DNA of 63,915 nucleotides, filler included, from Thermoplasmatota archaeon (GTDB taxonomy: Archaea > Thermoplasmatota > E2 > JACPAO01 > JAHFTW01): the NCBI GenBank assembly GCA_041623215.1. It is 15 parts of 15 records of this genome, joined end to end, with 100 filler letters (N's around TTAATTAATTAA, not from the genome) between each part and the next. Parts side by side here need not be neighbours in the genome. Positions count along the whole stretch, not along the records: positions 44,673 to 48,756 come from JBFJXH010000157.1; 14 more parts are not named here. One strand, written 5' to 3'. Of this stretch, positions 44,673-48,756 are shown piece after piece. The notes under the pieces were generated by a model. That model worked only from the letters and a program-made list of their open reading frames with translations, was not told the DNA's origin and made no database searches. Position 1 is the stretch's first letter, and every line of letters starts with the position of its first letter. The translations under genes and the position numbers were made by a program.

Positions 44673-46616
44673 CTCGACGAAGCCCGGCGGCGGGGCATTC
44701 CCGTTATTCGCCGCGGCGACCAGCACTATCAACTTGGCTGGGGCGCGAAACAGAAGGCGCTGTGGGGCACGCTCACAAGCAAGGCGTCAGGCCTGGGCTT
44801 TGACATCGCTAATGATCACGAACGCATCCTGGAGTTCCTCGAGGACACCGGCATTCCCCTACCTGCAGGCGAGGCCCGCCGAACCTTGGCCGGATGCCTG
44901 GAATTGGCCGAGGAGCTACGTTATCCGATCGCCGTCAAGCCGCTTCGGGGCCGTGGCGGCGTCACGCCCCGCGTGGACTCCGACGAGGAACTGGAAGCGG
45001 CCTACGACCGGGCTAAGCAACTCCACGCGTGGGTGGTCCTGCAAGACACGGTGCATGGCGCTCCACACAGGATTCTTGTCGTCGCAGGCAAGGTCGTCGG
45101 AGCCGCACGCAAGTCCACCGGGCATGCGCCAGAGGGAAGCGAGTCCGACGATTGGACGGATGTCACTGACACCTTGAACCCCGCACTTCGCTCGATGGCT
45201 GAACGCGCAGCTTGTCTCGTGGGTCTCGACGTTGTGGGCATCGACATCATGGCCGACGACCTCGAGCAAGACCCGCGTGAGTCGCGTGCCAAGGTTGTCA
45301 GCCTGCACCCCCGTCCCGACCTCACCCCGTTCGCCAAACGTGGCGCGGCCGCGCGAGTCATGGATACGCTGTTTGCCCCCGGTGAGACGGGTCGCATTCC
45401 GCTCCTGGCAGTTACCGGCACGAACGGGAAAACGACGACCATCCGACTCATCAGTCATATTCTCAAGATGGCCGGAGAACAAGTTGGCATGGCCTGCACG
45501 GGCAGTGTGGAAGTAGAAAACGAAGTCATCCTGCGCGGGGATTACTCTGGGCCCGCCGCAGCCCGCGTGGTGGTGCAAGAGCCCTTTGTGACCACCGCCG
45601 TCTGCGAAGTTGCGCGGGGAGGCATTCTGCGGCGCGGCCTCGGCTTCGATGCTGCCGACGCGGCTGCATTCCTCAATGTTGGCAGCGACCATTTGGGTCA
45701 GGGGGGCATTGACACGGTGGAAGACCTCGCGCGCCTCAAAGCGGTGGTCGTGCGCGCCGTGCGACCGGGCGGCACGGTCGTTCTCAACGCCGATGACGAA
45801 CTTGTGTGGGCGCAGCGAAAACACCTCGAAGGTCGGCGCATCTTGCCCTTCACAATGGATGCCGACAACGCCGACGTAGAAGCGCACGTGGCAGCGGCCC
45901 CGGACAACGCGGCAGTCGTATTGCACGACAACGCTCTGTGGCTACACCGCGGCGAGGCGAGGTTCCGCGTCGTTGACATCCGGGACATGCCAATCACCCT
46001 GGACGGTGCCGCGCTGTTCAATGTCGCCAATGCCGCCGCCGCCATCGGTCTAGCCTACGGTTTGGGCGTCAGCGAGGATGATTGCAGGATGGGCCTGCGA
46101 ACCTTCAACCCCAATACCAGTCAATTGCCAGGGCGCATGAATCTCATCACGCTCGGTGGCGTCAAGGTGCTCATTGACTACGGGCACAATGTGCCCGCGC
46201 TCCGGGCGCTGGCGCAAACCTTGCCCCGCCTTGCTGCGGGCCGTAAAATCAATGTGGCGGATGCTTCCGGCAACCGCCGCGACGAAGACCTGCGCGCATT
46301 CGGCGCCCAAATTGCGCAAATGTACGACCGCATCATTGTTTGCGACCCCGACCCCCGGCAGCGGCAACGTGGCGAGACGGCGGATGTCATCCTTGATGGC
46401 ATTCGCTCCACCGGTTTCCCCGAAGACCAACTGACCCGGCAGCTGGACGAAACCAAGGCCCTGCGCATGGCCCTGGCGGAAAGCCGACCGGGCGACCTCG
46501 TTGTCCTGCAAGCCGATGACGTGCAAGCAACCATCGACCTCTGCAACCGACTGCGCGAGCGTTTGGAGGCAGGCGAATCGCCAGCCGACCTCAATCAAGA
46601 ACTGCTTGCTGCGTAG
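44673..46616 (+). CDS. cphA: Cyanophycin synthetase-like protein (degenerate ATP-grasp + intact Mur-ligase domain), 5'-truncated
   Basis: The frame is open from the contig start: EARRRGIP...QLGWG, VKP, HRILVV, GLDVVGIDI, then RIPLLAVTGTNGKTTT, GDYSGP, EVARGGILRRGLGF, NVGSDHLG, PGRMN and DYGHN. Confidence 0.88.
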   Translation, partial: LDEARRRGIPVIRRGDQHYQLGWGAKQKALWGTLTSKASGLGFDIANDHERILEFLEDTGIPLPAGEARRTLAGCLELAEELRYPIAVKPLRGRGGVTPRVDSDEELEAAYDRAKQLHAWVVLQDTVHGAPHRILVVAGKVVGAARKSTGHAPEGSESDDWTDVTDTLNPALRSMAERAACLVGLDVVGIDIMADDLEQDPRESRAKVVSLHPRPDLTPFAKRGAAARVMDTLFAPGETGRIPLLAVTGTNGKTTTIRLISHILKMAGEQVGMACTGSVEVENEVILRGDYSGPAAARVVVQEPFVTTAVCEVARGGILRRGLGFDAADAAAFLNVGSDHLGQGGIDTVEDLARLKAVVVRAVRPGGTVVLNADDELVWAQRKHLEGRRILPFTMDADNADVEAHVAAAPDNAAVVLHDNALWLHRGEARFRVVDIRDMPITLDGAALFNVANAAAAIGLAYGLGVSEDDCRMGLRTFNPNTSQLPGRMNLITLGGVKVLIDYGHNVPALRALAQTLPRLAAGRKINVADASGNRRDEDLRAFGAQIAQMYDRIIVCDPDPRQRQRGETADVILDGIRSTGFPEDQLTRQLDETKALRMALAESRPGDLVVLQADDVQATIDLCNRLRERLEAGESPADLNQELLAA

Positions 46617-46650
46617 CCGCCTTTTTCCACGGCACCTGACTCGCGGCCTT

Positions 46651-47550
46651 GTGCCTTTCACAGTCCTGGCCCACGGCGGCGCCGGCTCTTTCGACCACAA
46701 GGAACACGACGGGCCCCAGGCGGCCGCCGACGCGGGCCTTGCGGCCTTCCAGCGAGGCGCCACACCCCTAGACGCGGCGATTGTGGCCACCCAAGTCTTG
46801 GAGGATGACCCACGCTTCAATGCAGGCACCGGGTCCAATCTCCGCTTCGATGGCCACTCCATCGAGATGGACGCCGCCGTGATGGATGGGATGAGTGGCC
46901 GATTCGGCGCCGTGGCATGCATTGAACGTGTTCGCAACCCGGTGCTGGTGGCACGGGACGTACTGGACACGCCGCACAATCTGCTAGCCGGACGGGGCGC
47001 TACGGCGTTTGCTCGCGCCAGGGGACATGCCGACTGGAATCCAGAAGCGCCCATCAGTCGCGCCAAGTACGAACGGTTGCAGACCATGTTGGCCAGCGGC
47101 GACATCGAACCCGGCTGGTGTGAATGGGACTTGGCGGATTTGCGCCGTGACTGGAATTTCAGCGTGCCATTCGCCCAAGCCGTAGGGCCCAGCGACACCG
47201 TCGGAGCTGTGGCCAGTGACGGCCAACACTTTGCCGCCGCCCTCTCGACGGGTGGCACCATTAGCACCCTGCTTGGCCGCGTGGGCGATGTTCCCTTGCC
47301 GGGTTGTGGCTTGTGGGCCGGCAAACAGGGGGCGGTCTGCGTGACGGGCGACGGCGATCACCTCGCCCGCGCCCGACTGGCGGGCCGAGTCGAATCGTGG
47401 CTCAAGCAAGGGGAGTCCGCTGACACCTGCATCGACAAGGCCATCGCCTTGTTCCCCGAGCACGTGGCTGTTGGGCTCCTGGTTCTCGCGCCGCACGGGC
47501 ACGCTGGTGGTAGCAACCTCCAAATGGCGTGGGCGGTCGCCGAGGCATAG
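46651..47550 (+). CDS. iaaA: Isoaspartyl peptidase / L-asparaginase (Ntn hydrolase, IaaA type)
   Basis: HGGAG, LEDDPRFNAG, EMDAAVMDG, DTVGAVA (Thr nucleophile), STGG, GRVGD and TGDG. Confidence 0.9.
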   Translation: MPFTVLAHGGAGSFDHKEHDGPQAAADAGLAAFQRGATPLDAAIVATQVLEDDPRFNAGTGSNLRFDGHSIEMDAAVMDGMSGRFGAVACIERVRNPVLVARDVLDTPHNLLAGRGATAFARARGHADWNPEAPISRAKYERLQTMLASGDIEPGWCEWDLADLRRDWNFSVPFAQAVGPSDTVGAVASDGQHFAAALSTGGTISTLLGRVGDVPLPGCGLWAGKQGAVCVTGDGDHLARARLAGRVESWLKQGESADTCIDKAIALFPEHVAVGLLVLAPHGHAGGSNLQMAWAVAEA

Positions 47551-47552
47551 CC

Positions 47553-48419
47553 ATGATCAAACCCGAAGTCCTAGCCCCCAAGGGTATGCTGGTTGCCATC
47601 GGCGGCAACGAGGATAAGACGACGGATCTAGAGGTCCTGCGCGCCATTTGCAACCTGCCCGAGGGCGGCACACGCACCGTCGAGGTTCTGCCCATCGCAA
47701 GCCGCATCCCGGAGGAGGCCGGCGGCCAATATGTCGAACCCTTCCAAACCATTGGCGCCAAGACCGTGAACATCATGGACATTCGAACCCGCGCCGAAGC
47801 AGACTCGGATGAATTGGTGCAACGAATCATTGACGCGGATGTGGTCTTCTTCACGGGTGGCGACCAGCTGCGCATCACCAACTTGCTAGGGGGCAGCCGT
47901 GTCCTGGAAACGCTGAAGGGTCACTTCCAGCGCGGCGGGGTCATTGCCGGCACCAGCGCCGGAGCTGCCGCCATGAGCCAAGCCATGATTTACCAGGGTC
48001 GGGCCGGCAACGCCCTTCGCAAAGGCAACGTGCAGATGACGCCTGGCTTGGGTTTGATTCGCAATACGGTCGTGGATTCACACTTCACGCAGCGTGGCCG
48101 CTTCAGCCGACTTCTCGAAGTGGTCATTGGTAACCCGGGCGTGATTGGTCTGGGATTGGATGAAGACTCGGGAGTTGTCGTGCGCGAGGGGCGCGTGGCC
48201 GAAGCGATTGGCAGTGGCGTTGTCGTGGTCATTGATGGCCGCGACATGGATTACTCGAATGTGACGGACGTGGCCATGGGGACGGCCATCGCCGAAGAGG
48301 GCGTTCGCGTCCACACGCTGACCACGGGGCACGCGTTCGACTTGGAAGACCGCCGCTACCTTCGCCCGGTGGTTTCGCTCCGCGAAGAAGACCATGAGGA
48401 CGAAACCTTAGCCGAATAG
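47553..48419 (+). CDS. cphB: Cyanophycinase
   Basis: IGGNEDK, FTGGDQLR, GTSAGA (Ser), DSHF (His), RGRFSRL and GLDED (Glu). Confidence 0.93.
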   Translation: MIKPEVLAPKGMLVAIGGNEDKTTDLEVLRAICNLPEGGTRTVEVLPIASRIPEEAGGQYVEPFQTIGAKTVNIMDIRTRAEADSDELVQRIIDADVVFFTGGDQLRITNLLGGSRVLETLKGHFQRGGVIAGTSAGAAAMSQAMIYQGRAGNALRKGNVQMTPGLGLIRNTVVDSHFTQRGRFSRLLEVVIGNPGVIGLGLDEDSGVVVREGRVAEAIGSGVVVVIDGRDMDYSNVTDVAMGTAIAEEGVRVHTLTTGHAFDLEDRRYLRPVVSLREEDHEDETLAE

Positions 48420-48621
48420 GAGCGCCCAGTGGCGGAAGGGACGGGGGCGTCGAGTCGGGGCGCCGTGCGCCAGAGACGTGGGGTCGGTAAGGCCGACGCG
48501 GGTGGGTCGGTATGGTTGAATGCACCACCGTTCCTGCGAGCCTGTGGCGGCGCCGGCTGACGACAGGCAATCGCGGCATCGGGAAACCGAAGCAACCGCG
48601 CATGGCCCGCCAGACGGTGGC

Positions 48622-48756
48622 ATGGACCTTGCCGCGGTGCGGCGGCTCGCGCCATGGGCCATTGGGTTCAGCCTTATCGTGCTGCTGGCCATCCTTATCT
48701 GGACGCAGGTCCGCGGAGGCCAAGACTTGCGCAGTTCCTTCGCGGCTCTCGATGCC
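48622..48756 (+). CDS. Membrane protein N-terminus (possibly flippase-like / lysylphosphatidylglycerol synthase TM family), truncated
   Basis: MDLAAVRRLAPWAIGFSLIVLLAILIW...; only 45 codons are visible. Confidence 0.35.

Follow-up and report, generated by a model that had tools for sequence, protein, structure and literature searches.

The window analysed here is a stretch of 63,915 nucleotides from a Thermoplasmatota archaeon (assembly GCA_041623215.1), made up of 15 separate contigs of one marine metagenome-assembled genome (MAG), 2.6-4.6 kb each and ordered by length; the contigs are joined by N spacers with a ttaattaattaa linker, and neighbours across the spacers are not physically adjacent. 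One of these contigs, at window positions 44673-48756 (contig C157 of the window genome, G000), carries a second paralogue of cyanophycin synthetase, here called cphA', whose product has lost catalytic residues of the G (ATP-grasp) domain, which in CphA1 adds Asp to the backbone, and retains an intact M (MurE-like) domain, which in CphA1 adds Arg. Interest in cyanophycin synthetase stems from its being a rare polymerase that works without a template and unites three active sites in a single chain, and from its use in obtaining a valuable nitrogen-rich biopolymer. The features of the contig are given below together with the evidence for each, residues being numbered throughout as in TeCphA1/SuCphA1.

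44673-46616, plus strand: cphA', codons 142-788 and the stop codon (homology to CphA1 structures, E 1e-113)
44673-45389, plus strand: degenerate G-like (ATP-grasp) domain, fragment residues 1-239 (alignment; predicted fold good, catalytic residues gone)
44817-44819, plus strand: His replacing Lys220, the ATP beta-phosphate Lys, 'NDH' standing for 'DK' (alignment; role of K220 from the available excerpts of PMC9427784)
44934-44963, plus strand: shortened P-loop(G), KPLRGRGGV, with K261 present, H267 gone and the loop 2 residues shorter (alignment)
45114-45155, plus strand: stub of ~14 residues in place of the 75-79-residue Gomega, the Asp-binding large loop with N394 and S396 (alignment; lowest-confidence block of the model)
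45300-45320, plus strand: SLHPRPD for EVNAxPG, that is E450 (Mg2+ ligand) to Ser, N452 to His and G456 to Asp, with R458 deleted just after (alignment)
45390-46613, plus strand: intact M (MurE-like) domain (T522, E558, DHLG, F692/N, R731 in PGR and H748 in GHN present)
45417-45440, plus strand: M-domain P-loop, GTNGKTTT (motif reading)
46651-47550, plus strand: gene of the isoaspartyl peptidase / L-asparaginase family, IaaA-like (Pfam Asparaginase_2, 1.4e-60; NF007589, 6.8e-33, under its cut-off)
47529-48419, plus strand: cyanophycinase gene, cphB (TIGR02069, 236.6 bits against a cut-off of 126.6; Peptidase_S51)

The cphA' frame comprises 647 open codons, terminates in TAG and opens at the first base after the N/ttaattaattaa spacer, and its 5' end is therefore cut by the contig boundary. 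The first 188 codons of the gene lie on another contig of the same genome, C76 (locus L001, 564..1, minus strand). The final 141 bases of C76, read on the reverse strand, match the first 141 bases of the window contig exactly; through this identical overlap the two contigs join into a complete cphA' of 788 codons with neither an internal stop nor a frameshift. Directly upstream of it on C76 stands an intact cphA1 (886 amino acids, aa), found by a TIGR02068 search of the same genome (1056.8 bits, above the cut-off), and its TGA stop overlaps the TTG start of cphA' (TTGA), with a GGAGGTG 5 nucleotides (nt) upstream. The initial annotation, which had read the window fragment as a possible Arg-ligating half-enzyme, suggested that a partner with an active G domain might lie immediately upstream, past the end of the contig, and it was precisely there that this gene was found. 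The partner CphA1 possesses every listed G and M residue, and the N-domain motif Cx19HxxEH is also exact in it. Since cphA1, cphA', the IaaA-like gene and cphB occur together, the locus represents a complete cluster for cyanophycin synthesis and breakdown, which is now placed in marine Thermoplasmatota archaea. The likely start of the IaaA-like gene is the GTG at 46651, picked by homology, and cphB has an alternative start, ATG at 47553.

According to the available excerpts of PMC9427784, the G domain of TeCphA1 is composed of Gcore (residues 162-234, 306-324 and 400-487), Glid (235-305) and Gomega (325-399); K220 and K261 bind the ATP phosphates, H267 lies within P-loop(G), R309 and R323 act at the G site, N394 and S396 on the Gomega large loop bind Asp, and Mg is held by D431 and E450, with G456 and R458 also participating. 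Among solved structures, CphA' matches the CphA1 entries 7lg5, 7wac, 7lgm and 7lgn (E ~1e-113, identity 33-34%), and the N-G-M domain order and the fold of CphA1 are recovered in the alignment to 7lg5/7wac, in the N-terminal piece and in a predicted structure. The catalytic ATP-grasp residue set of CphA1, in contrast, is incomplete: at K220, K261, H267, R309, R323, N394/S396, D431, E450 and R458, CphA' has His, Lys, Gly, Arg, Lys, a deletion, Asp, Ser and a further deletion, respectively, KPLRGRGGV replaces KPLDGNHGRG, and SLHPRPD aligns with EVNAAPG. The HMMER match to 7lg5 falls into two pieces (query 3-156 to SuCphA1 173-333, query 162-625 to 402-867), between which ~68 CphA1 residues are left without a counterpart, and the segment from 'AAR(K)' to 'TDVTD' measures 15 residues in CphA' and 79 in CphA1. 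What the initial annotation had read by eye is thus borne out by alignment, namely EVNxxPG changed to SLHPRPD, DK to NDH and GNHGRG to GRGG, as well as the contraction of the 'AAAER'-'DxTD' segment to about 15 residues; the equivalent G-domain catalytic residues are not retained.

As for the M domain, the same excerpts name K499, T500, T522, E558, N497/F692, R731 and H748 as key residues, and the Mur-ligase set (K499/T500, T522, E558, DH, F692/N, R731 and H748) is present in CphA'. The motifs GTNGKTTT, EVARGG, DHLG, FNVAN, PGR and DYGHN all occur in the window protein, and all but FNVAN had already been recognized there. Among Pfam models, Mur_ligase_M (75.4 bits, cut-off 24, 7.7e-21) and Mur_ligase_C (61.9 bits, cut-off 28.4, 1.5e-16) score above threshold, and the ATP-grasp models remain just under it (RimK 20.5 bits, cut-off 21). 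The 647-aa fragment misses the TIGR02068 cyanophycin synthetase cut-off of 850 with 584.1 bits, and the 188-aa N-terminal piece obtains 66.8 bits, matching model positions 74-211. Furthermore, the N domain of CphA' is ~25 residues shorter than that of CphA1 and is devoid of Cx19HxxEH, which the accessible text of PMC9262961 describes as the primer-generating motif, present in the majority of CphA1 though not in every one.

When the window fragment was modelled with AlphaFold2 on a 29-row alignment, the predicted local distance difference test (pLDDT) score was 89.3 and the predicted template modelling (pTM) score 0.81. Within the G-like part, block pLDDT is ~85-96 except for the shortened P-loop(G) (73) and the Gomega stub (57). 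The PDB structure closest to the model is substrate-bound TeCphA1 (7wae_A, TMq 0.89, root-mean-square deviation 3.4 Å), and CphA2 structures match it only at TMq 0.38-0.44.

The same losses recur in the relatives of the protein and are not a product of chance. A search of 5.8 billion protein clusters yielded 27 best full matches (745-783 aa, one being a 655-aa fragment) with 52-80% identity and solely Mur-ligase Pfam domains, and these, together with the window protein, constitute the 28 short proteins over which the following counts were made. Their Gomega has 3-15 residues, as against 79 in CphA1, and in none of the 28 were K220 (His in 21), H267, R458, E450 together with N452, or Cx19HxxEH retained; K261 is found in 25/28 and D431 in 18/28, and the 11 M-domain columns that were checked are identical in 28/28. 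Of the columns whose conservation among 93 CphA1-type proteins reaches 90% or more, 3/37 are retained by the short clade in N, 18/55 in Gcore plus Glid, 0/26 in Gomega and 4/32 in Gcore_c, compared with 65/80 in Mcore and 30/33 in Mlid, which gives 95/113 for the M domain as a whole. The M domain of CphA' is under tighter constraint than the M domain of its partner CphA1: among six genomes holding both genes, mean identity is 68% for CphA' and 64% for the partner in Mcore, and 71% and 60% in Mlid, whereas it is 37% and 74% in N, and 46-58% (Gcore 46-58, Glid 55) and 64-77% in the G parts.

Moreover, the ratio of nonsynonymous to synonymous substitution rates (dN/dS, or omega; Nei-Gojobori method, NG86) in five close CphA' pairs is 0.07-0.16 in the G-like domain, 0.15-0.22 in N and 0.04-0.12 in M, values that are rough because dS (0.7-1.8) is partly saturated. 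From these low ratios it follows that the dead G-like and N domains are still constrained. The pattern of loss is conserved loss and not decay, in line with what the initial annotation had set against a pseudogene-like fate, and the orthologues bear the mark of purifying selection. That cphA' is merely a decaying duplicate or an assembly artefact, as its distribution over two contigs and its TIGR02068 score under the cut-off might suggest, is hardly credible and was rejected: the frame of 788 codons is uninterrupted, the 141-nt overlap is exact, contiguous orthologues occur in at least five genomes, the 28 clusters form one clade with 100% support, and omega is ~0.1.

Two further explanations are touched by the state of the M domain. 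First, CphA' might be a non-catalytic pseudoenzyme that serves as a scaffold or regulator of CphA1, its M domain perhaps binding ATP or polymer without ligating; of its three active sites, two have already been lost, and the partner CphA1 has a full set of sites. However, the retention of 95/113 conserved M positions, the presence in 28/28 of the ATP, Mg and lid residues named in the excerpts of PMC9427784, and the fact that this M domain is more conserved than the partner's render such a role quite improbable. Second, CphA' might attach a side chain other than Arg (Lys, ornithine or citrulline, for example) or use another poly-acidic acceptor, giving rise to a modified polymer. Some CphA1 also accept Lys (PMC10206079, as far as its accessible text goes), and it is conceivable that the specificity of a second M domain has shifted, but no M-domain column is fixed to a residue differing from those of the 93 CphA1-type proteins, for which reason altered specificity was dropped as the leading idea. 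As the cluster contains cyanophycin genes only (cphA1, iaaA, cphB), we give this explanation even less credence than the pseudoenzyme. The alternative acceptor, which the initial annotation had also entertained, is left without support because cphA' sits between cphA1 and the cyanophycin-degrading genes.

In the order to which the window genome belongs, 16 of 38 genomes have a cphA match, and 11 of 38 possess the short type, ten of them whole and one cut by a contig end. A cphA1 lies directly upstream on the same strand in 11/11 of these short-type genomes; nine tandems are found on a single contig, and those of the window genome and of G030 were joined via contig-end overlaps of 141 and 19 nt, respectively. 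Contiguous orthologues of 760-775 aa are present in G020, G023, G024, G035 and G036. In 10/11 genomes the TGA of cphA1 overlaps the start codon of cphA', be it ATG, GTG or TTG, and GGAGGTG is located 5 nt upstream in 9/11 of the junctions compared, a set that includes the long pair of G034 described below. The sole exception to the overlap is G021 (contig C283, L026 ~1395-1420), where cphA1 stops with TAG and ATC, 5 nt after GGAGGTG, occupies the place of the homologous cphA' start codon; this ATC may reflect an unconventional start codon, an error in sequencing or a variant. In six relatives' loci, iaaA and cphB are clustered with the tandem, either before cphA1 or after cphA', and in four genomes of a sister genus the order is iaaA-cphB-cphA1, cphA1 being complete and present as one copy. 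Apparent fusions at the single cphA1 genes of genus g3 (open frames of 1023-1285 aa) were rejected as overlapping frames in G+C-rich DNA. When the phylum was sampled evenly (401 genomes), a cphA match was obtained in 42 genomes and the short type in eight; one of the eight, G100, is a member of another family and again has it in tandem.

A different kind of second copy was encountered in G034 (contig C8, L036 3523-6201 and 6135-8750, plus strand), in which cphA1 is followed, with an ATGA overlap, by a long copy of 849 aa (P0025). This protein retains Gomega, K220, E450, N452 and R458, bears the replacements H267Q, N394S, S396A and G456D, and has lost the N motif. In a maximum-likelihood tree of 81 rows (support given as the Shimodaira-Hasegawa-like approximate likelihood ratio test, SH-aLRT), the short proteins form one clade (100), the G034 long copy is its sister (100), and the partner CphA1s fall into a separate clade (100), which argues that the duplication is old and that the decay was apparently stepwise. 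The long copy resembles CphA' in its tandem position and in the loss of the N motif and differs from it in the retained Gomega, K220 and Mg ligands; it thus looks like an earlier or intermediate stage of the same decay.

Taken together, these sequence data lead us to favour, with moderate confidence, a reading in which CphA' acts as the arginine-ligating, scaffold-bearing subunit of a CphA1/CphA' heteromeric synthetase. The overlapping stop and start behind the Shine-Dalgarno-like GGAGGTG would couple translation, such that both proteins would be made together. According to the excerpts of PMC9427784, CphA1 forms tetramers that are based on a large Gcore-Gcore dimer and in which every Mcore contacts three Gcores; in such an assembly, the retained G-like core of CphA' would occupy the position of one CphA1 Gcore, both in the dimer and in the tetramer. 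The best explanation for a G-like core that is under selection yet has lost its catalytic residues is that it serves as a structural copy within a CphA1-type assembly. CphA1 would then extend the poly-Asp backbone and cut primers, and Arg would be added, with ATP, to the beta-carboxyl of the new C-terminal Asp by the M domain of CphA', either alongside the CphA1 M domain or in its stead. In addition, CphA' might offer the invariant acidic residue 215 in trans to the sole live G site. In TeCphA1, Glu215 reaches across the dimer and holds the primer Arg at the G site of the other protomer, and the E215A variant is impaired (PMC9427784, same excerpts). Residue 215 is Asp or Glu in 28/28 CphA', despite the degeneration of the remainder of the site, Ala or Gln in 7/8 partner CphA1 and Glu in the four single-copy relatives, a pattern which offers a weak hint of a CphA1:CphA' Gcore pair with CphA' serving the only live G site.

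Proteins that lack a functional G domain are also found in bacteria. A profile built from the archaeal clade was run against 1.84 billion representatives and the best 150 matches were examined; the archaeal clade itself is a single 50%-identity cluster (1327 bits), and the next match has 793 bits. Among these best 150 matches, 31 are 680-830 aa long, of which 23 are without Gomega (3-26 residues) and combine degenerate G residues with an intact M domain. These 23 G-degenerate clusters (694-826 aa, among P0126-P0271) are each a separate 50%-identity cluster, and six of them retain the N-domain CHEH motif. Ten clusters were looked up, and two had named members: Tuwongella immobilis WP_162657966.1, annotated as 'cyanophycin synthetase family protein / Mur ligase family protein', and MCC7153173.1, a 'hypothetical protein' from a Bryobacterales MAG. 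Further cases reside on plasmids. Plasmid 19 of Legionella adelaidensis (NZ_LR134428.1; L046 3001-4869) encodes a 622-aa 'Mur ligase family protein' in which N (Cx19HxxEH) and M are intact and G is deleted, followed by a cyanophycinase and an isoaspartyl peptidase, with no full cphA within the 7.9-kb locus. Plasmid 3 of Deinococcus deserti (NC_012528.1; L045 3119-5293) encodes a 724-aa 'Mur ligase family protein' with N-like and M domains and almost no G; it is not adjacent to a cphA, and full cphA genes are present on two other plasmids of the strain. A match to a similar G-poor protein was also seen in D. taeanensis. The bacterial G-degenerate or G-less proteins and the archaeal clade have the intact M domain in common, whereas the bacterial ones are less than 50% identical to the archaeal clade and some have the CHEH motif. 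CphA relatives with a dead or missing G domain and an intact M domain are thus widespread and go without a specific name; a protein-atlas search with CphA' returned generic cyanophycin synthetase clusters only.

The two plasmid loci speak for a free-standing Arg ligase, which would form oligomers of its own and, without entering a stable complex with CphA1, arginylate chains that CphA1 has released, at their C-terminal or unmodified Asp. Such an activity would suit the intact and strongly conserved M domain of CphA', and the M site is reported in the excerpts of PMC9427784 to bind chains ending in unmodified Asp. On the other hand, it leaves unaccounted the purifying selection on the dead G-like and N domains (omega 0.07-0.22), their confident folding in the model, and the strict tandem with its overlapping stop and start (10/11), and we consider it unlikely, albeit worth keeping in mind. 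Returning to the heteromer, several points weigh against it. Glu215 is present in just 42/93 CphA1-type proteins, and since this position is variable and its loss in the partners represents one or two events in the tree, the argument from trans-complementation is weak. The partner CphA1 has all of its own M-domain residues, so that the need for an additional Arg ligase is not evident; translational coupling indicates co-expression, not assembly; and the partial saturation of dS leaves the omega values rough. Finally, an M-only enzyme may work alone, given that in the loci seen the G-less proteins of Legionella and Deinococcus are without an adjacent cphA1.

A more far-reaching version of the heteromer, which we put forward tentatively and with less conviction, is that of an obligate two-gene enzyme with divided labour, CphA1 being responsible for primers and backbone and CphA' providing the Arg ligase and half of each Gcore dimer. 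Together with the bacterial G-degenerate relatives, it might constitute a third, unnamed class, a counterpart of CphA2, that would explain 'second cphA' genes.

How does CphA' compare with the known forms? With CphA1 (TeCphA1 7wac/7wae, SuCphA1 7lg5) it shares the N-G-M order, the predicted fold and identical ATP, Mg and lid residues of the M domain; it differs in the absence of Gomega, K220, H267, E450/N452, R458, N394/S396 and Cx19HxxEH and in its length, 788 versus ~880 aa. CphA2 (7ta5, 8fxh), as portrayed in the accessible text of PMC10273328, has an active G domain, a truncated and inactive M domain and a non-catalytic N domain. Like CphA', it is a paralogue of CphA1 that has one catalytic domain retained and N non-catalytic; yet the halves are exchanged, as in CphA' the G domain is truncated and inactive and the M domain intact, and CphA' therefore falls outside the description of CphA2. 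The initial annotation had called the protein a mirror image of CphA2, a phrase that fits this description well.

Pairs of cphA genes lying next to each other have been recorded in Betaproteobacteria as well as in other bacteria (PMC10687191 and PMC5178258, in their accessible parts). For the cphA pair of Ralstonia eutropha H16, the portions of the review PMC8560796 and of PMC11362209 at hand report that cyanophycin was detected neither in the host itself nor in E. coli. The betaproteobacterial pairs are comparable to the archaeal tandem in that the second paralogue follows immediately downstream on the same strand, its function being left open in the accessible text of the citing papers. The one pair examined here, that of Ralstonia wenshanensis, differs from the archaeal pair in that both copies retain Gomega and the Mg ligands and the downstream copy is near full-length (855 aa). 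On plasmid p56D2 of this species (CP076412.1; L044 2287-4947 and 5001-7568) the tandem cphA genes encode 886 and 855 aa and are separated by a 53-nt spacer. The upstream copy is without R323, N394, S396 and R458, and the downstream copy carries H267Q and has lost the Cys and the second His of the N motif, which could represent reciprocal partial degeneration in a bacterial pair. This division of residues appears to be of a different and milder kind than that of the archaeal pair. An ABC transporter gene lies upstream, and neither cphB nor iaaA is annotated in the locus seen.

The forms described in the accessible literature are CphA1, with all sites live, and CphA2, with G only, and a full-text literature search, which had subscription papers outside its reach, retrieved no account of a CphA combining a dead G with a live M domain, none of a cyanophycin synthetase that is heteromeric and none of cyanophycin genes in archaea. 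If our reading is true, an M-only form coupled to a full CphA1 would mean that the enzyme is separable into cooperating subunits. It would also provide a natural system for separating backbone extension from arginylation, and a testable explanation for the second cphA present in many genomes.

With respect to the origin of the DNA, the source organism was judged from its relatives to be a marine Thermoplasmatota archaeon, and the named relatives are likewise Thermoplasmatota archaeon MAGs. The sequence of the window contig is present in four marine metagenome runs of one study, none of them an RNA run. Just upstream of cphA1 on C76, on the same strand, lies a gene for a 449-aa protein (L001 3345-4694, minus strand) with FAD-oxidase C-terminal and 4Fe-4S dicluster domains.

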